In this document: positions 12,198-34,468 of the stretch, piece by piece | Position numbering within the stretch: the stretch's first letter is position 1 | Layout: every line of letters begins with the position of its first letter | Source of the DNA: Dyella sp. | GTDB lineage: Bacteria; Pseudomonadota; Gammaproteobacteria; Xanthomonadales; Rhodanobacteraceae | DNA: 64,000 nucleotides | Assembly: GCF_035685805.1 (NCBI RefSeq) | Contig: NZ_DASSAB010000049.1 | Location: forward strand, 1 to 64,000 | Reading direction: 5' to 3' | Notes under the pieces: model-generated | What the model was told of the DNA's origin: nothing | The model's input: only the letters and a program-made list of their open reading frames with translations | Databases searched by the model: none | Made by a program: the position numbers and the translations under genes

Positions 12198-12226
12198 TCG
12201 ACAAGGCTCCGAGGCCTCGCTAGAAT
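12198..12226 (+). promoter_or_regulatory. Candidate sigma70 promoter for the yerC-like/his operon: -35 TCGACA (12198-12203), 17-nt spacer, -10 TAGAAT (12221-12226)
   Basis: Hexamers read directly with canonical spacing, about 30 nt upstream of the yerC-like ATG. A perfect 10-bp palindrome TAACGCGTTA (12240-12249) sits at the predicted +1 region. Confidence 0.4.
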
Positions 12227-12256
12227 CGTCGTATTGTGTTAACGCGTTAGTACATT

Positions 12257-13482: not shown

Positions 13483-13504
13483 GCGAGCCCGAGGACACGA
13501 GACC

Positions 13505-17521: not shown

Positions 17522-18246
17522 GCTTCGACATCATTCCCGCGATCGACCTTCGCGATGGCCGCGTGGTCCGCCTGCGCCAGGGCGATTATGCGCAGCAGAC
17601 CACCTACTCGAACGATCCGGCGGAGCTGGCCCGGCGTTATCTGCACGAGGGCGCGTCCTGGCTGCACGTAGTGGATCTGGACGGTGCGCGCTCCGGCCAG
17701 ATCGCGAACCTGGCGGTGATCCGGGCGATGGCGGCCGACGGCCTGCGGGTGCAGGCCGGTGGGGGTGTGCGCGATGAAGACGACCTGCGGCGGCTGTTCG
17801 ATGTGGGGGTGCAGCGGGTGGTGCTGGGCAGCATCGCCATCGGCGATCCCGACACGGTTGCGGCATGGCTCGATACCTATGGCCCGGAGCGCCTTACGAT
17901 CGCGCTCGACACCCGCCGCGTCGACGGCCGCTGGTCACTGCCCAGTGCCGGCTGGACCGAAACCGGCGCACGCACCCTGGACGAGCTCGCGCCGTGGTAC
18001 GCGCAGCGCGGTGCACGCCATCTGCTGTGCACCGATATCGAACGCGACGGAATGCTGGCGGGCTTCAACCTTGAGCTCTATCGCCACCTGGCGGACATTG
18101 CGCCGGAATTGACCGTGCAGGCCTCCGGCGGCGTGCGCTCGCTGGCGGACATCCGCGCCGTGCGCGACGTCGGCGCCGGCGGCGTGATCCTGGGTCGGGC
18201 GCTGCTGGAGGGCCGCTTTGCGCTCGAAGAGGCGCTCGCATGCTGA
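17518..18246 (+). CDS. hisA: ProFAR isomerase
   Basis: [20 protein letters not shown]-terminus; 242 aa TIM barrel; overlaps the hisH stop. Confidence 0.9.
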
Positions 18247-19025
18247 GTCGCCGCATCATTCCATGCCTGGACGTGCGCGACGGCCAGGTGGTCAAGGGCG
18301 TGCGCTTCCGCGACCACGTCGTGATGGGCGAGATCGTCGACCTCGCACTGCGCTACCGCGACGAGGGCGCCGACGAGCTGGTCTTCTACGACATCACCGC
18401 CAGCCCCGAGGGGCGCAGCGTGGACCGCACCTGGGTGGAGCGCGTGGCGCGGGTAATCGACATTCCGTTCTGCGTGGCCGGCGGCATCCGCTCGGTGGAG
18501 GAGGCGCGCGCCGTGCTGCATGCCGGCGCCGACAAGATCTCTGTGAACTCGCCCGCGCTGGAACGTCCCGAACTGATCGACGAACTCGCGCAGGCCTTCG
18601 GCGTGCAGTGCGTGGTGGTCGGCATCGATTCACTGCGCGACGCCGACGGCCAGTGGCGCGTGCGCCAGTACACGGGCGATCCGGACAAGACCCAGGCGCT
18701 GTCGCGCGGCACGCTCGACTGGATGGTCGAGGCGCAGCGTCGCGGTGCCGGCGAGATCGTGCTCAACTGCATGGGCAGCGATGGCGTGCGCGAGGGCTAC
18801 GATCTGGAGCAACTGCGTGCCGCTCGGGCGCTCTGCCACGTGCCGCTGGTCGCCTCCGGCGGTGCCGGGGCGGCGGAACATTTCCGTGAAGCATTCACCC
18901 AGGCCGATGTGGACGGTGCGCTGGCCGCCAGCGTTTTCCATGCCGGCACCATCGCGATTCCCCAGCTGAAGCAGTACCTGGCCGGGCAGGGCGTGGCGGT
19001 CCGGCCTGCGGACCCTGCCGCGTAA
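18240..19025 (+). CDS. hisF: Imidazole glycerol phosphate synthase cyclase subunit
   Basis: [23 protein letters not shown] is the canonical HisF N-terminus; 261 aa. Confidence 0.92.
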
Positions 19026-19093
19026 CGCAGGCCAACGTCCGGGGCTGTCGCGACACCGCGCGCCTCCATTCCATCGTCCAGAAGAGTTTCCTC

Positions 19094-19720
19094 ATGACCG
19101 AGCCCCAGAACCCGCTGTCCCGCCTCGACTGGGCCAAGGGCGACGGCCTCTTGCCCGCCATCGTGCAGCACGCACTCAGCGGCGAAGTGCTGATGCTGGG
19201 ATACATGAATGCGGCGGCGCTGGAGGCGACACGGCAGACCGGCCACGTCACTTTCTTCAGTCGCTCCAAGCAGCGGCTGTGGACCAAGGGCGAGAGCTCC
19301 GGCCACGTGCTGGCGGTGCAGTCGATTCGTGCCGATTGCGACGCGGACACGCTGCTGGTGGGTGCGCTGCCCCACGGCCCAACCTGCCATACCGGCACCT
19401 CGAGCTGCTTCGGTACCGACGTCGTCCCGCCGCTCGGCTTTCTGGGCGAGCTGGATGCGCTGGTGGCGCAACGTCATGCCGAGCGTCCCGAGGGCAGCTA
19501 CACCACGCGCCTGTTCGAGGGCGACATCCGCCGCATTGCGCAGAAAGTCGGCGAGGAAGGGGTCGAGACCGCGCTTGCGGCGGTGGTGCAAGGCGACGAA
19601 GAGCTGCTGGGCGAAGCCGCAGACCTGATCTTTCATCTCATCGTCGCGCTGCGCGCGCGCGGGCTGTCCTTGCGCGAGGTAGCCGACGTGCTGTCCGCCC
19701 GGCACGCCGCCCGCCAGTGA
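19094..19720 (+). CDS. hisI: Bifunctional phosphoribosyl-AMP cyclohydrolase / phosphoribosyl-ATP pyrophosphatase
   Basis: 208 aa; HisI domain ([11 protein letters not shown]) followed by HisE domain. Confidence 0.88.
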
Positions 19721-19932: not shown

Positions 19933-20290
19933 GAGACAGCGTTTTTGAACGGGCGAACCCACGTGTTCTGCGCCTTGTGCAGGCCTGACGGCGAGACGTG
20001 GAAGCGTCTGCCGCAGCCGGCCAGCGGCGCTGCCGGGGCGACGTCCGAGACGGCGCTCCGCATGGCAGGGAAGACCGCATTGAAGCCAACGATGGCGTCT
20101 GAAGTCCTCAACCGCGTGGTGTTGGCCGCGGTGGTGTCCGACGGCTCGCGCAGCGCGTCTGGAGGCTCCTCGCCGCACTCTCTTGCCGCCAGTGCCCGGC
20201 TCGCCTTCACGAGCCGCATCGGCTCGGCACGCCTGCCTGCACCCTTGGCGCAGCCGTTTGCCCGGCCAGTCGTTGCACCGGTTGCCCGTC

Positions 20291-20956
20291 ATGCATGAGT
20301 TCCTCCAGACCTGTCTCACCTTCCCGACCGTGGTCTACAGCGTGCTGCTGGCGTTCTGCGTGGTGTACTGGCTGCTGGCCATGACCGGCCTTTTTCATGT
20401 CGACGCAATGGACGGCCTGCTGCTGGGGGACGCTCACGCTGCGCACGGCATGCCCGGGCATTCGGACGGGGTCGATTCGGTAGCCACCGCAGGCGTGCTC
20501 GCCAGGCTCGGGCTCGCCCGGGTGCCGATCATGATCGTGCTGACCGCGCTTTCCTTTTTTTGCTGGCTGGGCACGTACTTCGTGCACCTGGCGCTGCTGG
20601 GGCATCTGTCCCAAGGTTTACGCGTACTGGCCGGCATCGGAACCCTGCTTGCGGTGCTGGTACCCGGCGCGCTGCTGACCTCGTTGCTGCTGCGGCCGCT
20701 CAGCCGCTGGCTGGCCAGGCTGCAGTTCTCTGCCAACGCATCGATCATCGGCCGCGTGGGCACGGTGATCTCGCCCCAGGTGGACGCGCAAGGCGGGCGT
20801 GCGGCGTTCGACGACGGCGGCGCCGGCCTCATCCTGCAGGTGCGGTCGTCTGCCGGCGAAACGCTGGCGCGCGGCGAACGCGTGGTGTTGCTGTCGCATG
20901 ACGCCCAGGCGCACACCCACGCCGTGATTTCCGAAGCCGAATTCAACCAGCGCTGA
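20291..20956 (+). CDS. NfeD-like / YqiJ-like inner-membrane protein (TM helices plus C-terminal OB-fold beta-barrel)
   Basis: 221 aa from ATG 20291 (an alternative in-frame start at 20183 exists). Several hydrophobic helices, then IIGRVGTVISPQVDAQGGRAAFDDGGAGLILQVRSSAGETLARGERVVLL resembling the NfeD C-terminal OB-fold. Sits 5' of a flotillin gene as in yqiJ-yqiK and yuaF-floT. Confidence 0.5.
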   Translation: MHEFLQTCLTFPTVVYSVLLAFCVVYWLLAMTGLFHVDAMDGLLLGDAHAAHGMPGHSDGVDSVATAGVLARLGLARVPIMIVLTALSFFCWLGTYFVHLALLGHLSQGLRVLAGIGTLLAVLVPGALLTSLLLRPLSRWLARLQFSANASIIGRVGTVISPQVDAQGGRAAFDDGGAGLILQVRSSAGETLARGERVVLLSHDAQAHTHAVISEAEFNQR

Positions 20957-21016: not shown

Positions 21017-22975
21017 ATGTCACTTCCTCTTGTCCTCCCGTTTGCGATCGGGCTCGGCGTCCTGCTGCTGCTCGCGCTCGGCGTGTTCGGCCTCTTCAAG
21101 GCGTTCTACCGCAAGGTCGACCAGGGCACTGCGCTGATCGTCAACGACCTGAGCTCGCAGCCCAAGGTGCACTTCACCGGGGCGTTGATCATTCCGGTCT
21201 TGTACAAGGCCGAGGAAATGCAGATCAGCCTGATCACCCTGCAGGTGGATCGCCGCGGCAAGGAAGGCCTGATCTGCCGCGACAACATGCGTGCGGACAT
21301 CGCGGTGGCGTTCTATCTGCGGGTGAACGAAACCGCGGCCGACGTGCTGCGCGTGGCCAAGGCGGTGGGCGCGGCACGCGCCTCGGACCGCAATGCGGTG
21401 GAAGAACTGTTCAACGCCAAGTTCTCCGAGGGCCTGAAGACGGTCGGCAAGCGCTTTGAATTCATCGAACTGTTCGAGAAGCGCCAGGAATTCCGCGATG
21501 CGATCGTGGACGTGATCGGCAAGGATCTCAACGGCTACGTCCTCGAGGACGTGGCCATCGACTACCTGGAGCAGACGCGCAAGGCGGACCTGGATCCGAG
21601 CAACATCATGGACGCGGAAGGTATTCGCAAGATTACCGAGCTCACCGCGATGCAGAACGTGCGCACCAACGAGCTGGAGCAGAACGAGCGGCTCTCGATC
21701 ACAAAGAAGAACACCGAAACGCGCGAAAACATGCTGCAGATGGAGCGCCAGCAGGCCGAAGCGGTGGCCAAGCAGAAGCGCGAGGTCGCCACGGTGGAAG
21801 CGCGCGAGGAGGCCGAGACCGCCAAGGTTCGTGAAGAGGCGCGGCTGGTGGCGGAACGTGCGCGGCTGGAGTCCGACGAGCAGATCAAGATCCGCGAGCA
21901 GGAACAGCTGCGCCAGGTCGAAGTGGCCGAGCAGAACCGCCGGCGCGCGGTGACCATCGAGGTCGAGCGCGTTGCACGTGCGGGCCAGCTGGAGCAGGTC
22001 ACCACCGATAAGGAAGTGCAGCTGCAGGGCGTCGAGCGCGACAAGGTGGTCGAGCAGGGTCGCATGGACGTGGCCAACGTGGTGCGCGAGCGCACCCAGA
22101 TCGAACAGACGGTCGCCGTGGCCGAGGAGAAGATCAAGGAGACCCGCCAGGTGGCCGAGGCCGATCGTGCCAAGCAGGTGGCGATCCTGGCGGCGGAGGC
22201 GCAGGCGCAGGAAAAGCTGGTGATGGACGTGAAGTCGGCCGAGGCAGCGGAGCAGGCGGCGCGCCACCGCGCGAACGAGCTGACGGTGCGCTCCGAGGCC
22301 GAGCTGGTGGCGGCAGGCAAGCAGTCCGAGGCCAAGAAGATCATCGCCGAGGGCACCCGCGCAGAGCGGGCCGCACCCGGCCTGGCCGATGCGCAAGTCA
22401 AGGAGGCCATGGCCGGCGCGATCGAGAAGACCGGCGTGGCCGAAGCGCGCGTGATCGAGTCCAAGGCGGACGCCAACTACAAGCAGGGCAACGCCGAGGC
22501 CCGGGTGCTGGCCGAGCGCCTTGAAGCCGAGGCCGGCGGTCAGGCCAAGATGGGCCAGGCCAGGGCCGATGCCACCATGGCGATGGGCGTGGCCGAAGCC
22601 GATGCCGTGGGTCGCAAGATGTCGGCCGAGTCCGAGGGCCTCACGTCGAAGTTCGAGGCGATGGGCAGGATGAGCCCGGAAGCGCGCTCGCACGAGGAGT
22701 TCCGCATGCAGCTGGAGACGACCCTGCGGCAGGTGCTGGCGACGCTGGAAGCGGGCAAGGAGGTGTCCCGCGAAAGTGCCGGCGTCATCGGCCAGGCACT
22801 CCAGGGCGCGAACATCGAGCTGATCGGTGGCGACGGCGGCGTGTTCGATGCGTTGACCAAGGGCATGTCGATCGGCAAGGCGATCGAGGGCATCACCGGA
22901 TCCAGCCCCGCGATGCAGCAGCTGCTGAGCAAGCTGACCGGTGCGCCCGCGTCGGATCTGTCGGCCGAGGCGTGA
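21017..22975 (+). CDS. Flotillin-like SPFH/band-7 protein (YqiK/FloT-like) with long Glu/Ala/Arg/Gln-rich coiled-coil C-terminal region
   Basis: Strong AAGGAG RBS 7 nt upstream; N-terminal TM helix then SPFH domain (ALIVNDLSSQPKVHFTGALIIPVLYKAEEMQISLITLQVDRRG...CRDNMRADIAVAFYLRV); 652 aa. Confidence 0.85.
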   Translation: MSLPLVLPFAIGLGVLLLLALGVFGLFKAFYRKVDQGTALIVNDLSSQPKVHFTGALIIPVLYKAEEMQISLITLQVDRRGKEGLICRDNMRADIAVAFYLRVNETAADVLRVAKAVGAARASDRNAVEELFNAKFSEGLKTVGKRFEFIELFEKRQEFRDAIVDVIGKDLNGYVLEDVAIDYLEQTRKADLDPSNIMDAEGIRKITELTAMQNVRTNELEQNERLSITKKNTETRENMLQMERQQAEAVAKQKREVATVEAREEAETAKVREEARLVAERARLESDEQIKIREQEQLRQVEVAEQNRRRAVTIEVERVARAGQLEQVTTDKEVQLQGVERDKVVEQGRMDVANVVRERTQIEQTVAVAEEKIKETRQVAEADRAKQVAILAAEAQAQEKLVMDVKSAEAAEQAARHRANELTVRSEAELVAAGKQSEAKKIIAEGTRAERAAPGLADAQVKEAMAGAIEKTGVAEARVIESKADANYKQGNAEARVLAERLEAEAGGQAKMGQARADATMAMGVAEADAVGRKMSAESEGLTSKFEAMGRMSPEARSHEEFRMQLETTLRQVLATLEAGKEVSRESAGVIGQALQGANIELIGGDGGVFDALTKGMSIGKAIEGITGSSPAMQQLLSKLTGAPASDLSAEA

Positions 22976-23038
22976 GGTAGTGAGCCTGTCCACGCGACGT
23001 GCGCGCTCGCGCTTTCGCCTTCCAAGGACTGAACGAGC

Positions 23039-26000
23039 ATGACTGATCCGATCAACCGCGACGCCACCGACTCGCTGGACCAGGCGGTGGCGCAGGGCGG
23101 CGCCTACGAGGTGCTGCGCAAGCGCCTGACCGTGCAGGGGCGACGCCTGCACGAGACCGCCGAGGCGCTCAATGCCAGGCGTTTGCAGGAATTCGGCGAT
23201 TCCAGGATGGAGATCGTCGGCCGTCTGCGCGTGCGCAGCGAACAGAATGCGGTCGGTCGCGACATCGTGCAGGTCGGTGAGCTGCTGCTGTTCGGCTACA
23301 ACGTGTTTCTCGGCCTGAAGGCCAGCACCGCTGTCGCCGACGTGTTCAGCCTGTATCGCCTGGTGAAAACGGCCGAAGGTTATGACGTGACGCCGGTGGA
23401 GATCGCCGGCAGCTTCCTCGCCGAGCCGCAGTTCCAGCGCGACTTCAACGAGCTGTACGAGTACTACAAGGAAGCGCGCCTGCTGCAGCTGCAGATCAAG
23501 GAAGGCAAGCTGCTGGCCGCTTTTCAGGTGGGACTGAAATCGACCGACGCGCGCGTGTTCCGCTGGCAACTGTCGGCGCAGGGCGAGGTGAACTACATCG
23601 ACAGTCGCGGCGAGCGCGACATCGCGATGCCGCCGGCCTTCGATTTCGAGTGGGTCCGGGCAACCAAGGACATGGAAGTGAGCGGGCGCTTTCCGCACCT
23701 GAACATCCTGGACACCTTGTTCGTCGAGACCATCGGCGGCGACCTCACCATCAAGGTCGAGAACAACACCGAAACCGGTCAGGGCGTCTACAGCGAGCCG
23801 GTGGAGGATCGCACCCAGTCGCTGGACGACGCACAGGTGGCATTCGCACGCGTCGGTTCACTGATTCTGCTCAAGGTGCTGCCTTATCGCGAGGCGCAAT
23901 GGCGTGGGCTGGTGTTCAACACCACGACCGGCAAGGTCTCGCGAGTCGACGCGATCGTGCAGGCCTGCATCCAGTTGCCGGAAGACCACGGCATCATTTT
24001 TCCCGGCGGGTATTACCTGCAGAACGGTGAACACAAGGCGTTCGATGCCGCGGTTGCCGGCATGCAGTACAAGCGCACCATTCGTTCGCCCAACGGCGAA
24101 GACGTGCTCTATGTCTTCTATGAGCCGCAGGGCGGCATGGCTGCGCTGCTGGTCTACAACCTGGTTCAGCGCCAGCTGCAGCCGCCGATACTGGCGCACG
24201 GCCATGCGCAGTTGGCCGATGGCCGGATGGTGCTGTTCCACGCCGGCAACGATGAGCCCACCCGGGTGCACCAGATGCAGGTGTGGCAGACGCCGTTCAC
24301 GAGCGACGAGTTCGCGGCACAGCGTCCCCCCAGCGGCACCTTCATGGGGCGGATCGGCAACGCCGAATGGGTGCGGGCGATTTCCAATGTCTATGACCTG
24401 GCCCGCGACATCGCGAGCGAGGACGTCAATGCCCGGCGCTACGAACTGCTCGCCCACAACACCCGTCGCCTGTTCGACCTTCATCACTGGATTGACGACG
24501 AGCACGTCGACGGGCTGGCCAGCCTGCTCCACGAGGTGGCCGCGACCAGTGAATCGGTGCTGGACGAGTTCCAGAAGGTGGTGGAGATCCGGCGCCAGTC
24601 CGATCAGGCGATGGAGCAGGCCAGGGCACAGCATCGCGCGCTGCTTGGCCGCCTGCAGCCGGACGGGTGGACCCGGGTCGAGGACTATGTCACCGGCCTG
24701 AAAGAGATCGCTGCCCTGCGCGGGCATCTGTTGACGATCCGCGACTACCGATACATCGACACCGCTGCCCTCGACGCGATGTCGGACGAGCTGACGCAGG
24801 CACATGAGCGCGTCGGCGCCGCCACCGGCAGGTTCCTCTCCAGCGCCACGGTGTTTGCACCGTTCGAAAAGCGTGTCGACGAACTCGATCAGCTGGCCCA
24901 GAAAGTTGCCACGGCGACCCAACTGGTCGAATGTCTCGAACAGATGCGGACGATGTCCGCTGACATGGACATGCTGTCGGAGTTGCTGGCGTCGTTGAAG
25001 GTAGACGACCCGGCCCAGCGCACACAGGTGGTCGACCGGCTGTCGGCGCTTTACGCGCGGCTCAACCAGGCCAGGGCGCGTGCGGAGCTGCGTCGCAAGT
25101 CGCTCGGATCGGCCGAAGCGATAGCGCAGTTCGGCGCCCAGTTCACGCTCTTCGGCCAGTCCGTCACCAGCGCGCTGGGCATGGCCGGCACGCCCGAAAA
25201 GGCCGACGAACAGCTGGCACGGTTGATGGTGCAACTGGAGGAGATCGAGAGCCAGTTCGGTGAGCACGAGCAGTTTCTGGGCGACATCCTCGACAAGCGC
25301 GAGGAGTTGCTTGAGGCGTTCCAGAGCCACAAGCAGGTGCTGCTCGACGAGCGCCAGCGCAAGGCGGCCTCGGTGATGGATGCAGCGCAGCGCATCCTTG
25401 AGGGGCTTGGCAGGCGCACCGAACGCTTCGACAGCGCGGATGCGCTCAATGCGTTCTTCGCCAGCGATCCGCTGATCCAGAAACTGCGCGAATTGGTGTT
25501 GCGCCTGCGCGAGCTGAAAGACTCGGTGAAGGCGGATGATGTCGAGGCGCGGATCAAGGCCGCCCGCGACCAGGCGGTCCGCGCCCTGCGCGACCGCAGC
25601 GACCTGTTCGAGGACGGCGGGAACGTCATCAGGCTGGGGCCGCGGCACCGCTTCAGCGTCAATACCCAGCCGCTCGACCTCACCTTGCTGCCAAGGGGCG
25701 ACACGCTGGCTGTGCACCTCACCGGCACGGATTTCATGGAGCCGATCGAAAACCCGGAGCTGGCGGCGCTCGAGCCGTTCTGGTCCGTCTCGCTCGAATC
25801 GGAGTCGCCGGAGCTCTACCGGGGCGAGTACCTCGCCGGGCAGATGCTGGACGCCGCCGTCGCATCACGTGACGGCCTAACTCTGGCGCGCCTGCAGCAG
25901 CTGGCACAGGATCCCGATGCCCTGGCGAAGGCAGTGCGCGAGCATGCGGCGCCGCGCTACCGCGACGGCTACGAGAAGGGCATCCACGACCACGACGCAA

Positions 26001-28279
26001 CGCTGATTCTGAAGGCCCTGCTGCACCTGCATCGCACCGCCGGCACGCTGGTGCAACCACCGGCCGCGCGAGCGCTTGCTTTCAGCTTCTGGGCACGCTC
26101 CAAGGCGTCCAGCGACGAGTGGACGGCGCGCATCCGGACGGCACGCGCCATCGATGCGCTCAGCACCGGCGCCGCCGCACTGGCGGGACTGCACGACGAG
26201 CTGGCCGAGGCCATCCGCAGCGATGCCTGTTCGGAGCCGTGCGCCATCCCGCAGATCAATGCGCGGGCCGCCGATGCGGCCGTCTACCTTATCGACAGCA
26301 TTACCGGGGCAACCCCCGAGTTCGTGGCCAGCGCCAGCGCCGATGCGCTGGACAAGGCGCTGCGCGAAGCCCTGCGCGGCAGTGATGCCGGTGCGGTGTT
26401 CGAGGCAACCCTGGCGCAACACGAGCAGCGACCGCCGGTGCGATGGCTGCTGGTGCAGCAGGCGATCTCGGCGATCGCGGCACGGCCGGAGCTGGCCCGG
26501 CATGCACGCTTCGCCGCCGAGGCCGCTGCGCTCTACCTGCATGGGCGTGCGCTAAAGGTCACGGTGCGCAACGCGGACATGTCGGCGACAGTGACCGGCC
26601 TGCTGGGCCAGCACCCACGCATCGACGGCGGGCGGCTGGAGCTCTCGATCGATGACTCACTCGCGCGCTTTCGGCGACACCTGACCGAGTTCGTGCCGGG
26701 ATTCCAGCGCTACCTCGCGCTGCGCGCCGAAGTGGTCCAGCAGGAACGGCAGGCCATGCGGCTGTCCTCGTTTAAGGCCAGGCCGTTGACCTCGTTCGTG
26801 CGCAACCGACTGATCAACGAGGTTTATCTGCCGATGATCGGCGACAACTTCGCCAAGCAGATGGGCACCGCCGGCGAGGGAAAACGCAGCGACCTGATGG
26901 GTCTGCTGATGATGATTTCCCCACCCGGATACGGCAAGACCACGCTCATGGAGTACGTGGCACACCGGCTGGGCCTGGTCTTCATGAAGATCAACGGCCC
27001 TGCGCTGGGCCACGAGGTTCGTTCACTGGACCCGGCTCGCGCTCCCGACGCCAACGCCCGCGAGGAGCTGGAGAAACTGAACCTTGCGCTGGAAATGGGC
27101 AGCAACGTGATGCTCTACGTCGATGACATCCAGCACACGAGCGCGGAGTTTCTGCAGAAGTTCATCTCGCTGTGCGACGGCACGCGGCGCATGGAGGGTG
27201 TGTGGCGAGGCCAGACGCGCAGCTACGACATGCGCGGCAAGAAGTTCGCAGTGGTGATGGCAGGCAACCCCTATACGGAGTCGGGCGAGGTCTTCCGGAT
27301 TCCGGACATGCTGGCCAACCGCGCCGACATCTACAACCTCGGCGACGTGCTGGGCGGGATGGAAGAATCGTTCCTGCTCAGTTACATCGAGAACAGCCTG
27401 ACGTCGAACCCGGTGCTGGCGCCCATGGCCACCCGCGACATGGACGACCTCTACCTGCTGATGGACAAGGCGAGCGGCAAGGAGGTGTCGAACAACGCGC
27501 TGAAGCATGGCTACAGCGGCGCCGAGATCAACGAGATCGTGGCGGTGCTGCAGCGCCTGATGAAGGTGCGCGACATCGTCTACCGGGTCAACAAGGCGTA
27601 TATCGAGAGTGCTTCGCAGGCCGACAAGTACCGCGTCGAGCCTGCCTTCAAGCTGCAGGGCAGCTACCGCAACATGAACAAGCTGGCGGAGAAGATCTCG
27701 CCCGTGATGAACGACCCGGAGCTGCAGCAGATCGTGTCCGACCACTATCTGGGTGAGTCGCAGCTGTTGACGAGCGGAGCGGAGGAAAACCTGCTCAAGC
27801 TGGCCGAGATCCGCGGCATCATGAGTAGCGCGCAGCAGGCGCGCTGGGCGCAGATCAAGGTGGATTTCATGCGCAACAAGGCGATGGGCGGCGAGGAGGC
27901 TGACGTCGGCGGACGCATGGTGGCGCAGCTGGCCGACATCGCGGGCAATCTGCAGGCGCTCAAGCCGGCGGCAGCAGCGCCTGGCGCATCGGTGGACCCC
28001 GGCGCGGAAACGCTGCAGACGTCGATGTTCGACATCCTGCGCGCCACCCTGGCGCGGCAGAACATGCTCAACGAAGCGCTGATCGAACTGTCGGACCGGC
28101 TCGAGCAGGACACGGACGCGCCCGAAGCGGCCGTGGACAGTGGCAAGCGCAGGGCAAAGGCCAGGGAGGCGAGGGAGGTCGCGTTCGGTACCGAACTGGC
28201 GCGGTTGCGATTCCTGAGCGAACAGGCGCAGGCAGAGGCGTCGAAACCGGGTCAATCCGGCGAAGGGTCGCTCCCTTGA
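23039..28279 (+). CDS. Giant 1746-aa uncharacterised protein with a single MoxR/AAA_5-type (dynein-related) AAA+ ATPase module near aa ~1285-1440, flanked by long alpha-helical regions
   Basis: Uninterrupted ORF, 63 nt after the flotillin gene, with an AGGA RBS. Walker A MISPPGYGKTTLMEY (nt ~26925), Walker B VMLYVDDIQH (nt ~27122), and sensor-1/arginine region FAVVMAGNPYTESGEVFRIPDMLANRADIY matching the MoxR pattern NPxxExGxxxLPxAxLDRF. The N-terminal ~430 aa and the C-terminal ~300 aa have no family I can name. Confidence 0.75.
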   Translation: MTDPINRDATDSLDQAVAQGGAYEVLRKRLTVQGRRLHETAEALNARRLQEFGDSRMEIVGRLRVRSEQNAVGRDIVQVGELLLFGYNVFLGLKASTAVADVFSLYRLVKTAEGYDVTPVEIAGSFLAEPQFQRDFNELYEYYKEARLLQLQIKEGKLLAAFQVGLKSTDARVFRWQLSAQGEVNYIDSRGERDIAMPPAFDFEWVRATKDMEVSGRFPHLNILDTLFVETIGGDLTIKVENNTETGQGVYSEPVEDRTQSLDDAQVAFARVGSLILLKVLPYREAQWRGLVFNTTTGKVSRVDAIVQACIQLPEDHGIIFPGGYYLQNGEHKAFDAAVAGMQYKRTIRSPNGEDVLYVFYEPQGGMAALLVYNLVQRQLQPPILAHGHAQLADGRMVLFHAGNDEPTRVHQMQVWQTPFTSDEFAAQRPPSGTFMGRIGNAEWVRAISNVYDLARDIASEDVNARRYELLAHNTRRLFDLHHWIDDEHVDGLASLLHEVAATSESVLDEFQKVVEIRRQSDQAMEQARAQHRALLGRLQPDGWTRVEDYVTGLKEIAALRGHLLTIRDYRYIDTAALDAMSDELTQAHERVGAATGRFLSSATVFAPFEKRVDELDQLAQKVATATQLVECLEQMRTMSADMDMLSELLASLKVDDPAQRTQVVDRLSALYARLNQARARAELRRKSLGSAEAIAQFGAQFTLFGQSVTSALGMAGTPEKADEQLARLMVQLEEIESQFGEHEQFLGDILDKREELLEAFQSHKQVLLDERQRKAASVMDAAQRILEGLGRRTERFDSADALNAFFASDPLIQKLRELVLRLRELKDSVKADDVEARIKAARDQAVRALRDRSDLFEDGGNVIRLGPRHRFSVNTQPLDLTLLPRGDTLAVHLTGTDFMEPIENPELAALEPFWSVSLESESPELYRGEYLAGQMLDAAVASRDGLTLARLQQLAQDPDALAKAVREHAAPRYRDGYEKGIHDHDATLILKALLHLHRTAGTLVQPPAARALAFSFWARSKASSDEWTARIRTARAIDALSTGAAALAGLHDELAEAIRSDACSEPCAIPQINARAADAAVYLIDSITGATPEFVASASADALDKALREALRGSDAGAVFEATLAQHEQRPPVRWLLVQQAISAIAARPELARHARFAAEAAALYLHGRALKVTVRNADMSATVTGLLGQHPRIDGGRLELSIDDSLARFRRHLTEFVPGFQRYLALRAEVVQQERQAMRLSSFKARPLTSFVRNRLINEVYLPMIGDNFAKQMGTAGEGKRSDLMGLLMMISPPGYGKTTLMEYVAHRLGLVFMKINGPALGHEVRSLDPARAPDANAREELEKLNLALEMGSNVMLYVDDIQHTSAEFLQKFISLCDGTRRMEGVWRGQTRSYDMRGKKFAVVMAGNPYTESGEVFRIPDMLANRADIYNLGDVLGGMEESFLLSYIENSLTSNPVLAPMATRDMDDLYLLMDKASGKEVSNNALKHGYSGAEINEIVAVLQRLMKVRDIVYRVNKAYIESASQADKYRVEPAFKLQGSYRNMNKLAEKISPVMNDPELQQIVSDHYLGESQLLTSGAEENLLKLAEIRGIMSSAQQARWAQIKVDFMRNKAMGGEEADVGGRMVAQLADIAGNLQALKPAAAAPGASVDPGAETLQTSMFDILRATLARQNMLNEALIELSDRLEQDTDAPEAAVDSGKRRAKAREAREVAFGTELARLRFLSEQAQAEASKPGQSGEGSLP

Positions 28280-30126
28280 TCACGGGCCCGGCACCGGCAT
28301 CGGGGACCGGCGGCCCGGGAAACATCCCGGCGGATGACGGTGAACAACACCGTCGGCTGCAGCAGCAGGCTCGTGCCACGCTGGCGGCGTCGCCGGCACC
28401 GGGCCTGCTCGAGCACCTGCAGGCGATCCACCGGATCGTGCTGGCGGCGGAACCTGCCGCGCTGCGACGCAGCGTCGGGTGGCTGGGTCGTCTGCTGGGC
28501 CGAGATATCACGCTGCAGGTCGAGGCCAACGCCCTGCGCAGCGAGCTCGGGGTGCATGTATTGCAGGCCCGCCAGCAGCTAGGCCGGCTGGCCGAACATG
28601 ATCAACAACTGGAGGCCCTCGGCGTTGCGCTGCGCGCCGCGATCGAGGAACTCGATCGGCAGTCCAGCCGGCTTGTCGGCCAGCCTCCGACTGACGAGCA
28701 ACAGCGGGGGCTGCACCATCTGGCCACGCTGAGCACCAGCCTGAGCACGACCGCGAGCCACCTCGGACTGATGGTCATTCACCACCGGCAGCTGACCCAG
28801 CGGGCGCGGCGGATATTGCCCCACGTCGAAATGCTGCTCGACCAGCAGCGCATGCTCCGCGCCGGGCTGAGCGCGCAGGCGGCGCTTCAGGCAGCCATGG
28901 TTCGCTCGATTCCGTGCAGGACCTTGCATCGGATGCGCCGAGCGGAGCTCCACCGATTTCATTCTCTCCCGACGATTCCACGCCCCGATGAGGACGCTCC
29001 CATGACCGACCCCACCCCGAACGACCACCCGGCACCGATATCGCCGGCGCTAAGCGACGCAGCGCTCCGGGACCTGGGCCTCTCCACTGCGGACATCGAG
29101 CAGGTGATGGAGGCGGCCAGGGCACTGCAGGATCTCAGTCCCGGCAACCTTCACAGCTATGGTCGGGAGGCGGCCGGACGCACCACCACGTTCAGCACGC
29201 AGTTGCTGGAGAAGGTTCGCAATGCCGATCTCGACAGCAGCGGCGAAAAGCTGGGCGAGGTGGTGCGGATTGCCCGCAGCCTCAAGCTCGCAGGCCTGAA
29301 CGAGCGATCGAGCGTACCGATCATCGGTCCGTTGCTGGATCGCATGAAGGCCGGGAAAGGGGAGTTGGTGCAGCGCTACAGCACCACCAACCAGCAGATC
29401 GATCAGTTGATGATCGATGTCGGCAACACGCAGTCCACGCAGCAGCAGCGCGTGCGCGAGTACGACCAGATGCACGAGATCGTGCGCGAAGAGCGCCACC
29501 AGCTCGGCATCCACATTGCCGCCGGGCGGGTGCGCATCGGCGAGCTGCAGCAGGAGCTGGAGGCGCTGCGCGGTCAGGATGATCCGGACTCCCGCGTGCG
29601 CCGGGCGGAACTGGACAACGCGCTGCGCCTCATCGACAAGCGGGTATCGGACCTGCAGGTACTGCAGCAGGTGGCGGAACAGACCCTGCCGATGATCCGG
29701 CTGATCCAGGCGAATGCGATCCAGCTGATCGAGAAGTTCAGCGCGGTTCGGGACGTGACCATACCCATGTGGCGCAACCAGTTCGCGATCCAGTTGTCGC
29801 TGGCCGACCAGCGCAGCGCGGTGGAGCTGGCCAACGCCATCGACGACGCCAGCAACGAGCTGATGCGCAAGAACGCCGAGATGGTGCACGCGGCCACCGT
29901 GGGCGCGGCGCGTGCCAACCAGCGATCGATCGTCGACCTGGAGACGTTGCGCACCGTCAATGAGACGCTGATCAGCACGGTCGAGGAAGTGCGGCAGATC
30001 CACCGCGACGGCATGGCCGCTCGCCGGAACCTCGCCGCGGAAATCGTGGCCATGCGCGATGATCTGCAGAAGCGGCTCGCCCAGGCCACCAGTGATCAAA
30101 CCGATGTTCAGGAGACAGGTTCATGA
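28276..30126 (+). CDS. TelA-like (toxic anion resistance / KlaB family) protein; 616-aa ORF whose C-terminal ~374 aa (from internal ATG 29002) carry the TelA signature
   Basis: TTG start overlaps the giant gene's stop (TTGA). The C-terminal region has TelA-like blocks (TIPMWRNQFAIQLSL..., NELMRKNAEM, IVDLETLRTVNETLISTVEEVRQI). The N-terminal 242 aa are Arg/Gln/Leu-rich helical and could be an extension or a separate product. Confidence 0.6.
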   Translation: MITGPAPASGTGGPGNIPADDGEQHRRLQQQARATLAASPAPGLLEHLQAIHRIVLAAEPAALRRSVGWLGRLLGRDITLQVEANALRSELGVHVLQARQQLGRLAEHDQQLEALGVALRAAIEELDRQSSRLVGQPPTDEQQRGLHHLATLSTSLSTTASHLGLMVIHHRQLTQRARRILPHVEMLLDQQRMLRAGLSAQAALQAAMVRSIPCRTLHRMRRAELHRFHSLPTIPRPDEDAPMTDPTPNDHPAPISPALSDAALRDLGLSTADIEQVMEAARALQDLSPGNLHSYGREAAGRTTTFSTQLLEKVRNADLDSSGEKLGEVVRIARSLKLAGLNERSSVPIIGPLLDRMKAGKGELVQRYSTTNQQIDQLMIDVGNTQSTQQQRVREYDQMHEIVREERHQLGIHIAAGRVRIGELQQELEALRGQDDPDSRVRRAELDNALRLIDKRVSDLQVLQQVAEQTLPMIRLIQANAIQLIEKFSAVRDVTIPMWRNQFAIQLSLADQRSAVELANAIDDASNELMRKNAEMVHAATVGAARANQRSIVDLETLRTVNETLISTVEEVRQIHRDGMAARRNLAAEIVAMRDDLQKRLAQATSDQTDVQETGS

Positions 30127-30368
30127 AGGAACAACACAGCCACCTCGAGATCGCCATCGCCTCGATCAAATGCTTTCAGGATGACGGCCGGCTGGATCCG
30201 GCGGAACTCGATCAACTTGTTTCGATCGCCGAGCGCGATGGGTCGATCGACCCTGAGGAGGCGCGCGTGCTGGAGAGGATCATGGGCAAGCTCAGGCCCG
30301 AGGAGCTGGATGAGGCCATGCTTACGCGGGTCGAGGCGCTCCGGGCAAAGCTTCTGCCGCTGCTCTAG
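30123..30368 (+). CDS. TerB-like mini-protein (81 aa)
   Basis: ATG overlaps the TelA-like stop (ATGA). Duplicated DG(R/S)(L/I)DP.E...L..I motif (DDGRLDPAELDQLVSIAERDGSIDPEEARVLERIMG) typical of the TerB/DjlA-N superfamily. Confidence 0.5.
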   Translation: MKEQHSHLEIAIASIKCFQDDGRLDPAELDQLVSIAERDGSIDPEEARVLERIMGKLRPEELDEAMLTRVEALRAKLLPLL

Positions 30369-30614
30369 CCCTGCTTGATCCGGACGGCCCGCCGGGCGAC
30401 GCCGTTCGCCTGTTTCCCCGGTATGCCGCGGGATTCGCGCTCACGCTGGCCCGGCATCCCGGCATCCCGGCATCCCGGCCGCCGTGGCGGAGCGGAGGGT
30501 TCGTCCTCACCGCGCAAGGAATGAGCAGGCGGTGGTGCACCCGTCTCAGCGCAAGCGTTCGGGCTATCTAGCTGTGGAACGGAAGGCCTCGACCGGGAGA
30601 GTGTGCTCCCACGA

Positions 30615-31622
30615 TTACTGGGTCGCAGGTGCGCCGGTACGTTCGCCGGGTCGGAAGGGTAGCGGCGAGCCGGCGCGGATGCCCGCGCGCCATTTGGACA
30701 GTTGCTGTTCGATCCCCGCGCCCACCGCGATCTGTGGCTCGGACGGGGTGAGATGGTCGCGGGACTCCCAGCGGGCCACTTCCGCACTGGCGTCGCGAAA
30801 CGCCTGGACGGGATCAGGTGTGCGGTTGAGTGCGTCGACGAGCCATGCGCGGCCGAAGTAGGTGGCGTCGGAGTCGCTGCCGCAGCCGAACGAGGAGCGG
30901 TCGCTGCGGGCTGCGGTCATCACCAGGGTGCCATCCCCCTGCAGGGGTGAGACGAATCCGCCGGAATAGCAGGCGTTCACCACCACGACCTTCCACTTGA
31001 ACGGGTGCTCTTCCAGGATGCCGGCGAGGTCGCGGGCGCCGATCTGGTCCAGCGGCAGGGGATCCATGTCCACCAGCAGGTTGTGCTCCGGGTCGCCGTG
31101 GCTGGTGAGGTAAAGCATGAGGATGTCGCGCCGCGGGTCCATCACGCGCGACAGCGCAGTCAGCAGATTTTCCAGATTGCTCCAGCTGGCCAAGGGCAAT
31201 GTGTCGAGCGTTGCAGGGTTGTTGGCGAGTACCACGCTGTGAGCGCGCCGGCCGTAGCGCTGCTCGAACAAACGGGCCGCGTATTCCGCCTCGTTGCGGA
31301 AGACGTCTTCGCTGCCATCCCCGGCGAACGTCACCAGATAGAGGTTGGGTACGCCTGCGACAGGCGGTGTCAGCTGATCGAGCGCGCGCCGCAACAGGCG
31401 GGGCTGGGCGTAAAGCACCTGCTCGGGCGAAGGAGCATCGACGGGCCATCGGTCCGGGGGCGTATCCACGGGCTCGGCGTCGGCGGCTGTCTTCACGGCA
31501 GTTGCCGCCGTGGCCGGTGGGTGTGGCACGAGGACAGCGGAGGGTGGCGACTGGTGTGCCACCGTTGCGGTCAACGCCGCGCCGGTGGCGAAAGCGAGCA
31601 GGGCAGTGAGCAGCAAGCGCAC
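30615..31622 (-). CDS. Secreted peptidase C13 (legumain-like, caspase-fold) family protein
   Basis: GTG start at 31622; signal peptide MRLLLTALLAFATGAALTA; catalytic dyad context LYLTSHGD and VVVVNACYSGGF as in C13 peptidases; 16 nt downstream of mtnC on the same strand. Confidence 0.7.
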   Translation of the reverse strand: MRLLLTALLAFATGAALTATVAHQSPPSAVLVPHPPATAATAVKTAADAEPVDTPPDRWPVDAPSPEQVLYAQPRLLRRALDQLTPPVAGVPNLYLVTFAGDGSEDVFRNEAEYAARLFEQRYGRRAHSVVLANNPATLDTLPLASWSNLENLLTALSRVMDPRRDILMLYLTSHGDPEHNLLVDMDPLPLDQIGARDLAGILEEHPFKWKVVVVNACYSGGFVSPLQGDGTLVMTAARSDRSSFGCGSDSDATYFGRAWLVDALNRTPDPVQAFRDASAEVARWESRDHLTPSEPQIAVGAGIEQQLSKWRAGIRAGSPLPFRPGERTGAPATQ

Positions 31623-31637
31623 GGAGTGCCGCCCTGG

Positions 31638-32327
31638 TCAGACGCTGATCGCGTCGAAATCGCGATAGGCCGGATGCGCCGCCGAGGGCGGCAGCTCCTG
31701 CAGCGGATCGCGCAGCAGCCAGGCAGTCTGGAATCCCGCCAGCCGAGCCGCGTCGAGTTCCTGGAGGATGTCGGACAGGAACAGGATGTGCGCCGGCTGC
31801 TCCCCAATCGCTTCGGCGATGGCCGTATACGAAGCGGCCTCGCGCTTGGGGCCGGTCTGGGTGTCGAAGTAGCCGGCGAACAGCGGACCGAGGTCGCCTG
31901 CCTCGCTGTGCCGGAAAAACAGCTTTTGTGCCGGCACCGAGCCCGACGAGTAAACGTAGAGCTTGAGGCCCTGGGCGCGCCAGGCGCGCAGGCGCGCCGG
32001 CACCTCGCCGTAGAGGTGGGCACGGTAGTCGCCGGCCTCGTAGCCTTCTTTCCAGATCATTCCCTGCAGCGCCTTCAGGGCGGTCGACTTGCGGTCCTCG
32101 TCGATCCAGCGCAGCAGCATCTCGATCACCTCCTGCCGATCTGCCTCGATCAACCCTGCCTCGCGGGCCGCCTCATGCAGCCAGTGCTGCACTTCGGGCG
32201 TATCCACGTGGGTCTCGATGAAGGCCGGCAGGCGCTTGCGCGCGTACGGGAACAGTACGTCGCGAACGAAGTCGATCGAGCTGGTGGTGCCCTCGATGTC
32301 AGTGACGATGGCGCGGATCTCGATCAT
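31638..32327 (-). CDS. mtnC: Enolase-phosphatase E1 (2,3-diketo-5-methylthio-1-phosphopentane phosphatase)
   Basis: HAD motif I IVTDIEGTTSSI at the N-terminus; 229 aa; methionine-salvage context. Confidence 0.85.
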   Translation of the reverse strand: MIEIRAIVTDIEGTTSSIDFVRDVLFPYARKRLPAFIETHVDTPEVQHWLHEAAREAGLIEADRQEVIEMLLRWIDEDRKSTALKALQGMIWKEGYEAGDYRAHLYGEVPARLRAWRAQGLKLYVYSSGSVPAQKLFFRHSEAGDLGPLFAGYFDTQTGPKREAASYTAIAEAIGEQPAHILFLSDILQELDAARLAGFQTAWLLRDPLQELPPSAAHPAYRDFDAISV

Positions 32328-32358
32328 CGGTGTGTCCTTGCATCTGCCGGTGGCGCCA

Positions 32359-32922
32359 TCAGGCGTCGCCGCTGCGGTGTGGCGTCATGCGGGGAAACCG
32401 GCCCGCTATCTCCGTGCCGGTGAAGTTGGCCACCCAGCCTTCCTTGTTGGTGAACAGGCGGATGGCGACGAAATAGGGCGATTCGCTCATGTCGAACCAG
32501 TGCGGCGTACCGTCGGGCACGCCGATCAGGTCGCCCTGTTCGCAGAGCACCTCGTAGACCTTGCCATCGATGTGCAGCGTGAACTGTCCCGCGCCGGCAA
32601 CGAAAAAGCGCACTTCGTCCTCGCTGTGGGTGTGCTCGTCCAGGAATTTTTTTCGCAGCGCGGCCCGGTCCGGATGGTCGGGGGCGAGGCTGATCACGTC
32701 CACCGCCTGGTAGCCCCCGCTGGCCATCAGCCGGTCTATGTCGGCCCGATAGGCTGCGATCACTTCATCCTGGCTGGCGCCGGGAGCGACCGGCTGGGCC
32801 GCCTGCCATTGCTCGAAGCGGATGCCCACCGCCGCCAGCGCGGCCGCGATGGCCACATGGTCGTGATGCTCGGCCAGCGCCCCGTCCGGGCGGGTGTCTT
32901 CGTAGATGCGCAGACGGCTCAT
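32359..32922 (-). CDS. mtnD: Acireductone dioxygenase (ARD)
   Basis: 187 aa cupin; EHxH...H metal motif ([12 protein letters not shown]) typical of ARD; overlaps the mtnB stop. Confidence 0.85.
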
Positions 32923-33566
32923 GCGGACAACCTCCTCAGATCCAGTTCGCAGGAAAGCAGAAACTCCAGCGCCTCCAGGTGACGACGCGTTTCTGCCATG
33001 GTGCGTCCCCAGGTGTAGATGCCGTGGCCGTCGATCAGATAGGCGTGCAGCGGCTTTCCTTCATCCAGCCACGCATCCACCCGGGCGACCAGCTCCGGCA
33101 TCTGCTGAGTGTTGGGGAATACCGGTATCTCCAGCACGCTTTCATGCGTGTCGAAACCGGTGATCGCCTTCTGCAGCTCCCAGCCGCGCAGGCGGATGAC
33201 CCCGTCTGCGGCAAATAGACGCGAAGCCACGCTCTGGGTGCGCGAATGGGTGTGTAGTACCGCCTGCATCGCCGGCCAGCGCCGATACACCTGCGTGTGC
33301 AACGCCGTTTCGGCACTGGGCCGCGCCTCGCTGCCAACGGCATGTCCATCGAGGTCGATCAGCATGATGTCGCCGCGATCCAGCTTGCCTTTGTCACGCC
33401 CGGAAACGGTGATGGCGGCGTGCGAATCGTCCACCCGCATCGAGAAATTGCTGCTGGTGGCGGGGGTCCATCCGAGCGCGGCGAGTTCTCGCGCGGACTG
33501 TGCAATCGCGTCGGCGCAGGCGAAGAACGCGTCGGATGAAATGTTCTGTGGCAGCGCTGGTGACAT
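32919..33566 (-). CDS. mtnB: Methylthioribulose-1-phosphate dehydratase (class II aldolase fold)
   Basis: 215 aa from the internal ATG at 33566 (the track ORF extends to 33668); SSNFS and HTHS motifs of class II aldolase/MtnB. Confidence 0.8.
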
Positions 33567-33732
33567 GGCTATTTGGACGTCCAAACGGGTCGAAAGGATA
33601 ACATGAGCAGTCGGCGCGCCATCGGTTAATGCGAGCCATTCTCGCAAGTCAGGAAACATTGCGGTCAAAGGGTTAGCATCACGTAGTCAATCGCCGCGTC
33701 GGCGGCAGTTTATCCATGACGGAGGTTTGCCA

Positions 33733-34065
33733 ATGTCCCACGAAGAAAGCACTGAGTCGCGTCGTCGATTCCTCAAGATCGCTGCCGGTACGGCCGCGGC
33801 GGCGGTAGTGGTTGGTACGCTGCCGCGCTTGGCACGCGCTGCCGATCTGCCGCATGTTTCGGAGTCGGATCCGACTGCGAAGGCGCTCGGTTACGTGGAG
33901 AACGCCAGCGAGACCAAGGATCCGAAGCACAAGGCCGGCGACAATTGCGCCAATTGCCAGTTCTACAGCGGGGGTCCCACCGGCTTCGGCCCCTGCCAGT
34001 TGTTCCCGGGCAAGGCAGTGAGCGCGAAGGGCTGGTGCGTATCGCACGCGGTGAAGGCGGGCTGA
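33733..34065 (+). CDS. High-potential iron-sulfur protein (HiPIP) with Tat signal peptide
   Basis: GGAGG RBS 8 nt upstream; RRRFLK twin-arginine motif; four Cys in HiPIP spacing (CANCQFY...C...C). Confidence 0.8.
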   Translation: MSHEESTESRRRFLKIAAGTAAAAVVVGTLPRLARAADLPHVSESDPTAKALGYVENASETKDPKHKAGDNCANCQFYSGGPTGFGPCQLFPGKAVSAKGWCVSHAVKAG

Positions 34066-34468
34066 TAGTTTTTCCGTCTGCTGCAGGATGAAAAGAAAGG
34101 CCGGCTGCGAAGCCGGCCTTTTTCGTTTGTGCGTACGCGGCGCCATGTGCGGCGATGCCTAAAAGTGCTGCCCGGCGCGTCGGGATGAGGAGCTGACCCT
34201 GTCCGACGCGCCGGGCGGCGATCCGGGGCCCACTGCCAAGTGATATACCCGCGGACCACGGATCATACTCTCGCCCCCGCCGACTTTGGCGGACCTGCGG
34301 CCAATTTTCCGCAGAAATATATCGTTAAATCGTTTTAATACAGCGACTTGCGACAAAAATTCCGGCCGGGACTTCCCTTGCCGACGGCGCGTGACCAGCA
34401 CCACGGAATATCTGCCGATGGTCGACGATTCGGGAGATTTCTCTCCTTTTTGCTGCCGTTCGGCGCAT

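Follow-up and report, generated by a model that had tools for sequence, protein, structure and literature searches.

The window analysed here, a stretch of 64,000 nucleotides (nt) from a metagenome contig of Dyella sp. (NZ_DASSAB010000049.1), encodes an ATPase of 1746 amino acids (aa) that is an orthologue within the DUF3686/DUF7902/AAA family and differs in nothing essential from the named members; its gene follows directly on a flotillin gene. The protein carries a single AAA+ module, the fold of which is supported structurally as MoxR/dynein-type. We regard it as fairly probable that the protein oligomerises in the cytoplasm into an AAA+ machine whose function is bound up with the flotillin/YqiJ membrane module, of which the ~190-kDa ATPase is most likely the ATP-consuming third component, next to a YqiJ/NfeD-like protein with three transmembrane (TM) segments and a YqiK-type flotillin.

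Family membership and linkage to flotillin

The ATPase gene and the two conserved genes preceding it are located as follows:

23039..28279, + strand: ATPase gene, 1746 aa, ATG start, DUF3686/DUF7902/AAA+; orthologues are named "DNA repair ATPase" in PGAP
20291..20956, + strand: YqiJ/DUF1449-like (NfeD-type) membrane protein, 221 aa, three TM segments; first gene of the conserved core operon
21017..22975, + strand: YqiK-type flotillin, 652 aa, with an N-terminal TM segment, an SPFH region and a long Glu/Ala-rich helical region

The open reading frame (ORF) of the ATPase is intact, as confirmed by the ORF listing and the translation. Since the window has a G+C content of ~66% and holds many long spurious ORFs, for example one of 892 aa on the minus strand (21020..23698), the length of an ORF proves nothing by itself. 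This minus-strand ORF runs antisense to the flotillin and ATPase genes and is a probable high-GC artefact. The ATPase ORF is considered genuine because it matches Pfam DUF3686 (PF12458) over the whole profile (E=7.4e-193, 641.5 bits against a cut-off of 25, aa 37-483, profile positions 2-448 of 448) and DUF7902 (PF25472) at aa 606-688, nt 24854-25102 (E=1.2e-24, 86.8 bits against a cut-off of 26). An earlier note on this DNA, made from the sequence alone, could name no family for the bulk of the protein; in this it was mistaken, as the N-terminal ~450 aa are DUF3686 and aa 606-688 are DUF7902, which define a large catalogued family.

Among the matches listed, homologues share 64-84% identity with the ATPase at a query coverage of 93-100% and have lengths of 1600-1950 aa, and every full-length relative displays the same DUF3686, DUF7902 and AAA architecture; the homologue of Thermomonas brevis, for instance, is 71% identical across 100% of the query. 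A sequencing or assembly frameshift fusing separate genes, a possibility raised in the earlier note, is excluded because these collinear homologues contain the identical three Pfam domains. The nearest relatives (up to 84% identity) belong to the Lysobacterales/Xanthomonadales, with Dokdonella, Thermomonas and Pseudoxanthomonas among them, and a 54.9-kb JGI metagenome contig encodes the identical protein. More than 6300 homologous clusters at 90% identity span at least seven phyla, and the C-terminal 1200 aa as query retrieved 569 clusters below E=1e-30 from a library clustered at 50% identity. The gene is present in at least 586 species representatives, the hosts being Gamma-, Beta- and Zetaproteobacteria, Myxococcota, Actinomycetota, Acidobacteriota, Bacteroidota (Hymenobacter), Deinococcota and a Clostridia metagenome-assembled genome (MAG). 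Plasmid-borne copies are found on megaplasmids, among them pQBR103 (Pseudomonas fluorescens SBW25), and on Deinococcus and Streptomyces plasmids. A phage origin is rejected, with no homologue in a collection of 50,697 phage records, and no fusion of flotillin and ATPase genes occurs among the longest family members.

The gene context was compared in 80 loci, taken from contigs of one genome per species, in which six-frame ORFs were searched with hidden Markov models (HMMs) derived from the window and from four annotated loci. Of these, 77 are informative for flotillin, as their upstream DNA extends over 1.5 kb or more; they stem from Gamma-, Beta- and Zetaproteobacteria, Myxococcota, Actinomycetota, Acidobacteriota and a Clostridia MAG. 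In every one of the 77 the ATPase gene is immediately preceded by a flotillin gene on the same strand, usually at a spacing of 20-250 nt, and the same arrangement is seen in the PGAP-annotated records of Streptomyces, Hymenobacter and pQBR103. A YqiJ-like gene precedes flotillin in ~73/80 loci, and genes for YjfI (DUF2170, CesT/Tir-like) and PspA/IM30 are positioned further upstream in ~38/80. On the downstream side TelA and a small coiled-coil gene are present in 13/80 loci, all of them from Lysobacterales. A gene for a PLD/HKD hydrolase is located ~1-2 kb downstream in 13/80 loci, mostly of Pseudomonas and relatives (L008, L011-L016, L020, L028, L029, L052, L054 and L069; also L004 at 22855-22911), and PLD and TelA occur together in L008 only. 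By synteny, flotillin is thus an obligate partner of the DUF3686 ATPase and TelA is not a general one; the question of the earlier note, whether orthologues always neighbour SPFH and TelA genes, is answered in the affirmative for the former but not for the latter. Other clusters of downstream ORFs than those of TelA, PLD and the helical protein p195 described below were mostly overlapping-frame noise of high-GC DNA and were discarded.

Two of the loci show further features. On pQBR103 (L004, NC_009444.1 84437-97641) a contiguous same-strand block of the E. coli yjfIJKLMC type, with genes for YjfI, PspA/IM30, DUF2491, DUF350, DUF1190, a glutathionylspermidine-synthase-like protein and a rhomboid protease among them, is followed by the YqiJ-like, SPFH and ATPase genes; the envelope-stress cluster on this plasmid is mobile. 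In Thermomonas brevis (L001, 2868-5750) a 960-aa VIT/YfaP_C protein, which has no counterpart in the window, is encoded just upstream of the series YjfI-PspA-YqiJ-flotillin-ATPase. VIT domains often accompany VWA domains; for this protein no VWA match was reported.

The ATPase core and the domain anatomy

With one Walker A motif and one AAA/AAA_5 stretch the protein contains a single AAA+ module at aa ~1285-1440, as described in the earlier note, and all motif positions given there are within 10 nt of those computed here. The invariance of the motifs was judged over 30 diverse family members with identities down to 31%:

26918..26944, + strand, aa 1294-1302: Walker A, SPPGYGKTT, with S-P-P-G-Y-G-K-T invariant
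27113..27136, + strand, aa 1359-1366: Walker B, LYVDDIQH, with D1362-D1363-I-Q-H invariant
27260..27334, + strand, aa 1408-1432: putative sensor-1/arginine-finger block, AGNPYTESGEVFRIPDMLANRADIY, with invariant residues
27641..27676, + strand, aa 1535-1546: candidate sensor 2, P-x-F-x-L-Q-G-S-Y-R-x-M, invariant, in the helical region past the core

Within the third motif G1409, N1410, P1411, T1413, G1416, F1419, P1422, M1424, L1425, N1427 and R1428 are invariant; going by the MoxR motif pattern, we take N1410 to be sensor 1 and R1428 to be the arginine finger. R1544 in the GSYR element is a candidate sensor 2, after the G-[ST]-x-R motifs of RuvB and the clamp loaders. The segment following strand β2 (S1329, D1331, P1332, A1335), at the position of the pore loop, is strongly conserved as well. 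The second acidic residue of Walker B is Asp (DD) in every member, where the canonical residue is Glu (DE). Together, the invariant Walker A, DDIQH, N1410, R1428 and GSYR elements make up the likely active site of the ATPase.

The assignment to AAA_5 made in the earlier note holds in so far as the Pfam profile scores above its cut-off (29.2 bits against 22, E=1e-6, aa 1290-1413); however, the match is weak and, next to the generic AAA profile PF00004 at 26 bits, no stronger support for AAA_5 than for AAA. In the other family members (five checked individually) the AAA scores exceed those of AAA_5, and AAA_3 gave no Pfam match in the ATPase. The PF00004 match for its part is confined to positions 2-38 of the 131 in the profile. 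When the PDB was searched, both the protein by itself and a profile built from 30 sequences returned mainly matches centred on Walker A and the P-loop, namely to RuvB, Rix7, NVL, Cdc48 and p97, those to the classical AAA proteins Rix7, Cdc48 and NVL reaching 14-19 bits only. As little was aligned past the Walker A region, these sequence matches were dropped as evidence on the clade. Foldseek on the core was ambiguous, with RuvB, Skd3/ClpB, ClpX, HslU, MCM and CbbQ/NorQ among the matches. The structure comparison of the core gave the following values:

CbbQ (MoxR-type): 12.5, with 227 of 267 residues aligned
Dynein: 11.0
Midasin: 10.5
NorQ: 10.3
ClpB-NBD2: 10.2
RavA: 9.5
McrB: 9.1

In addition, the model contains a β-hairpin (aa 1384-1397) that separates helix 3 from the sensor-1 strand. 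It corresponds to the pre-sensor-1 hairpin, an element absent from classical AAA proteins. Because CbbQ tops the structure comparison and the pre-sensor-1 hairpin is present, a MoxR/dynein-type core is supported structurally, the modelled fold being closest to that of the solved MoxR protein CbbQ. This is in line with the MoxR/dynein-type reading of the earlier note.

Two AlphaFold2 models, based on alignments of 52 sequences at 44-86% identity, cover residues 1-560 (predicted local distance difference test, pLDDT, of 87; predicted template modelling score, pTM, of 0.82) and residues 561-1746, respectively. They predict the following anatomy from the N- to the C-terminus:

aa 21-52: long helix ahead of the propeller
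23210..24289, + strand, aa 58-417: divergent β-propeller of ~7 blades, the DUF3686 core, with ~28 strands in fours
24305..25606, + strand, aa 423-856: spectrin-repeat-like helical bundles with helices of ~25-58 residues, including DUF7902
25607..25753, + strand, aa 857-905: small five-stranded β domain (DSSP of the model, strands at model residues 303-343)
25820..26542, + strand, aa 928-1168: compact all-helical domain, mostly with pLDDT >85
up to aa 1275: β/α linker
26903..27328, + strand, aa 1289-1430: AAA+ α/β core
aa 1432-~1640: helical lid and C-terminal region
27959..28276, + strand, aa 1641-1746: Ala/Glu/Gln-rich C-terminal tail, poorly conserved and of low confidence

Hence the N-terminus, described in the earlier note as β-rich with the strings GIIFPGGYYLQNGEHKAFD (aa 318) and VLYVFYEPQGG (aa 356), is modelled as a β-propeller, and the helical middle part as spectrin-like bundles. 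The small β domain harbours a near-invariant G867 as well as near-invariant H/F/N residues, while for the helical domain at aa 928-1168 no PDB match stood out against the generic helical ones. In the tail the pLDDT falls below 50 at aa 1642-1664, 1690-1710 and 1732-1746, and over the tail region the family consensus is mostly "x". The TM prediction suggested in the earlier note was run on the ATPase and revealed no hydrophobic TM-like segment, and the protein is therefore most likely cytoplasmic.

The operon in the window

The ATPase gene of the window is flanked by flotillin, its neighbour in the earlier note too, directly upstream and by TelA, here in fused form, directly downstream. In this lineage the module is extended by two genes, a coiled-coil-TelA fusion and one for a TerB-like protein of 81 aa:

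28276..30126, + strand: helical p195/p245 (~240 aa) fused in frame to TelA, 616 aa; Pfam TelA at aa 284-602, E=4.7e-69
30123..30368, + strand: acidic helical protein, 81 aa, TerB-like (TerB E=0.0076, below cut-off); last operon gene

The spacing amounts to 60 nt before flotillin and 63 nt before the ATPase gene and is followed by the stop/start overlaps TTGA (ATPase/616-aa ORF) and ATGA (TelA/81-aa ORF), the latter of which couples the 81-aa gene translationally to TelA. A promoter and terminator scan of the operon yielded nothing above shuffled expectation.

The 221-aa protein comprises three hydrophobic segments and shows a weak NfeD match as well as a BLASTP match to E. coli YqiJ (E=1e-4); its homologue in Hymenobacter is annotated by PGAP as "DUF1449 family protein". 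The flotillin is left unlabelled by Pfam, NCBIfam and the PDB profile search, and its identity was settled by direct BLASTP to E. coli YqiK (E=1e-43, 29% identity over 476 aa including the SPFH region), which itself matches Pfam Band_7 and Flot; PGAP names the orthologues "flotillin family protein" or "SPFH domain-containing protein". The C-terminal ~180 aa of the flotillin (~nt 22420-22972) neither align to E. coli YqiK nor match Pfam "Flot". They contain a region, HEEFRM...IGG...FD...GK, that is conserved in ATPase-linked flotillins of four phyla; as a candidate, this part may be where the ATPase docks.

Separate genes in different frames encode p195 and TelA in the closest NCBI relative (L086; 245-aa gene at 11250-11987, TelA at 11998-13095) as well as in 14 further Lysobacterales loci. 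At the fusion junction (~28930-29005) the window is without 11 nt that L086 has just upstream, and where L086 has the ancestral stop, a TAA, the window has a TGA that is read out of frame. The in-frame fusion was seen in this window only; it may be genuine and specific to the lineage, or else result from an indel in the metagenome assembly. The 81-aa protein displays a duplicated "DG-x-hDP-x-E" motif, its TerB and EF-hand matches both being sub-threshold. It recurs in at least 12/80 loci, in four of which (L008, L014, L016, L029) its gene is inserted between those of flotillin and the ATPase, and it is also present in L086; it may constitute an unrecognised small subunit of the module.

Past the last operon gene a tandem repeat, GGCATCCC x3, is found in the intergenic region at ~30465-30495, where no terminator-like hairpin was detected. 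The upstream flank (13000-19720) is occupied by the his operon (hisG, D, C, B, H, A, F, IE), and a doubtful Ala/Ser/Arg-rich ORF of 78 aa just before the YqiJ-like gene (20062-20298) is a probable high-GC artefact. Downstream, at 30615-35000 on the opposite strand, genes for a peptidase C13 and of methionine-salvage type (HAD hydrolase, ARD dioxygenase, class II aldolase) are located, beyond which follow a HiPIP gene and two amino-acid permeases. The surroundings of the operon are thus of housekeeping character and not those of a mobile or defence island. With no match to YjfI or PspA anywhere in the window and the his operon upstream, the operon represents an abbreviated form.

Proposed function, alternatives and comparison with known systems

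We propose that the single MoxR-like AAA+ module would oligomerise, probably into a hexameric ring, as MoxR proteins do. The propeller and the spectrin-like arms may act as an adaptor in cis, taking the place of the separate VWA partner of MoxR. The arms could dock on the cytoplasmic flotillin assembly and/or on co-encoded PspA and TelA scaffolds. Under envelope stress, ATP binding and hydrolysis would drive the remodelling, assembly or disassembly of these scaffolds or pull clients out of them. In favour of this proposal speak the flotillin linkage in 77/77 loci, the membrane-stress genes (YjfI with PspA, TelA, PLD/HKD) that accompany the ATPase in part of the loci, and the published operon description and SPFH precedents discussed below. 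A more specific version of this mechanism is put forward only tentatively, namely that the protein is a dedicated ATP-driven assembly and disassembly machine for bacterial flotillin cages. As a MoxR-type ring with the propeller and spectrin-like adaptor built in, it would open, close or recycle the cytoplasmic SPFH compartment and pass clients on to PspA/TelA. If true, such a flotillin-cage remodeller would form a class of SPFH-coupled AAA+ proteins not recognised before, and bacterial flotillins would gain their first defined energy-dependent cycle.

Several observations weigh against a flotillin-linked remodelling machine. The DD Walker B of all members means that fast hydrolysis cannot be assumed and that a role as a nucleotide switch is possible. 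The model of residues 561-1746 (pLDDT 78.5, pTM 0.48) does not fix the inter-domain geometry, and its confidence is low at the arginine-finger segment (aa 1421-1433). Synteny establishes a functional linkage and not physical contact or the direction of action. Since PspA, TelA and PLD are each present in some loci only, none of them is a universal substrate; flotillin operons without the ATPase exist in E. coli and Shewanella, so that flotillin does not need it. Finally, no experimental work on any DUF3686-family member was found in the literature, where the search likewise returned no paper mentioning DUF3686 or PF12458.

The invariant DD in place of DE would also suit a spectrin-like tether or scaffold between flotillin platforms and some other structure, in which the AAA+ domain serves as an ATP-binding oligomerisation or switch domain and not as a processive remodeller. 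The ~800 aa in spectrin-repeat-like bundles and the propeller, a typical protein-protein interaction domain, are in line with such a role. It is nevertheless rather unlikely, since neither sensor 1 nor the arginine finger nor the candidate sensor-2 arginine varies, as one would expect where hydrolysis is important, and the segment at the pore-loop position is strongly conserved.

A conflict or anti-phage system of the abortive-infection type, with the ATPase as the sensor of infection and with the membrane proteins, PLD or TelA in the role of effectors, is improbable. PADLOC-DB v2 yielded only a weak match to LmuB in the helical region (E=9.8e-5, 19.7 bits) and none for flotillin or TelA, no homologue was found in the phage records mentioned above, the operon of the window is embedded between the his operon and methionine-salvage genes, and the invariant partners are homologues of the housekeeping-type YqiJ and YqiK, which E. 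coli keeps without the ATPase. These findings stand against the facts that large multi-domain ATPases are common in defence systems, that the operon resides on megaplasmids (pQBR103) and on Deinococcus and Streptomyces plasmids, that 13 loci have a PLD/HKD hydrolase for a neighbour, that TelA matches a phage "tellurite resistance" PHROG and that PspA is by name a "phage shock" protein.

The MoxR-type fold of the core raises the idea of a canonical MoxR chaperone which, with a VWA partner, brings a metalloenzyme or complex to maturity, its flotillin neighbourhood being incidental. This is highly improbable: among the six loci that have gene calls plus Pfam or PGAP annotation, none shows a VWA or MIDAS gene beside the ATPase (a VWA model was not applied to the remaining loci), the protein is ~5x the size of MoxR and carries fused propeller and spectrin-like domains, and a flotillin neighbour in 77/77 loci of different phyla is no incidental feature.

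A true DNA-repair ATPase, for example an SMC/Rad50-like or RuvB-like motor, deserves even less credence. It is backed by the Pfam text for DUF3686 ("ATPase involved in DNA repair"), the PGAP name, weak P-loop matches to RuvB, the weak match of the helical region to the SMC-like LmuB of Lamassu and the raised spontaneous mutation rate of a Shewanella knock-out of the YqiK-type flotillin (PMC1468410). Yet the NCBIfam RuvB profiles reach only 17.4 and 15.9 bits, where the cut-offs are 282 and 299, and align to no more than 44 residues, and the RuvB matches (16-19 bits) are confined to ~40 residues round Walker A. Pfam and NCBIfam gave no match to SMC, Rad50 or RecN, and no DNA-binding, nuclease or SMC hinge/ABC signature was found. 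Inspection of ~85 loci revealed no conserved DNA-metabolism neighbour, all conserved neighbours being membrane proteins. The Shewanella knock-out, which was also sensitive to H2O2, is explained in that study by iron and oxidative stress, and the operon concerned is without such an ATPase (PMC1468410). The name "DNA repair ATPase" is thus unsupported by sequence, structure or gene context and probably wrong, and this doubtful label has been propagated over thousands of database entries. The chance that the ATPase is an artefact, a random ORF of 66% GC DNA with its long spurious frames or a frameshift or assembly fusion in a metagenome contig, is negligible in view of the DUF3686 match (E=7e-193) and of collinear homologues of 1600-1950 aa in isolate genomes of many phyla.

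The flotillin-coupled AAA+ machine, our preferred reading, predicts an energy-dependent step in flotillin biology. SPFH deletion mutants are often weak in phenotype (for instance PMC13086221), and a giant ATPase beside flotillin in 77/77 loci offers an experimental handle on the function of bacterial flotillins.

Both the family and its operon context are already known, the former being catalogued and the latter being described in a section of a 2024 comparative-genomics study of the phage shock protein (PSP) system (PMC11237479). The operon reported in that section combines CesT/Tir-PspA, a YqiJ/YuaF 3-TM protein and sometimes a PLD hydrolase, abbreviated forms without PspA are noted, and a role like that of a chaperone in building membrane-linked complexes is proposed. 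It shares with the window operon the flotillin, the YqiJ-like protein and the propeller-helical-AAA+ ATPase, whereas the association with TelA, the coiled-coil protein and the TerB-like protein is absent from the section, which gives neither a mechanism nor an AAA+ clade for the ATPase. What is added here is the 77/77 count of flotillin linkage, the placement of the core near MoxR, dynein and midasin, and the case against the DNA-repair name. With the named DUF3686 members the protein has in common the three-Pfam architecture, the length, the invariant nucleotide-binding motifs and the upstream flotillin gene. In contrast, the downstream genes for TelA, p195 and the 81-aa protein p81 are specific to Lysobacterales, and the p195-TelA fusion to the window.

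The MoxR proteins CbbQ, NorQ and RavA have ~270-500 aa and consist essentially of the AAA+ module, while the present protein, with ~1280 of its 1746 aa ahead of the module, is larger and built differently, as the earlier note had emphasised. Their Walker B motif is DE instead of DD, and from the N-terminal helix to Walker A the DUF3686 ATPase reads closer to classical AAA proteins or RuvB than to MoxR. Where MoxR proteins employ a separate VWA partner, adaptor-like domains are fused in cis, so that the DUF3686 ATPase provides an example of a MoxR/dynein-type module with its putative adaptor in the same chain. Dynein and midasin (Rea1/Mdn1) concatenate six AAA modules per chain, whereas the window protein and five other members contain one; no MIDAS domain as in midasin is present, and no microtubule-binding stalk as in dynein was identified. 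The earlier description of a midasin/dynein-like mechanoenzyme is therefore apt for the fold of the single AAA module but not for the six-module ring in one chain. From the classical AAA clade (PF00004: p97, Vps4, FtsH, katanin) the protein is set apart by its partial PF00004 match and by the pre-sensor-1 hairpin.

A membrane-scaffolding oligomer that is genetically coupled to an AAA+ machine is likewise encountered in HflK/C-FtsH and in pairs of the ESCRT-III/PspA-Vps4 type, although the DUF3686 ATPase has neither the protease domain and TM anchor of FtsH nor the MIT domain and classical-clade AAA module of Vps4. The SPFH cage of HflK/C encloses the AAA+ protease FtsH (references in PMC13086221), and in B. 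subtilis the membrane localisation of PspA requires an SPFH protein, as cited in PMC10936438. The likeness of the flotillin-DUF3686 ATPase module to such pairs of an SPFH cage or ESCRT-III with an AAA+ machine would be one of functional analogy and not of homology.

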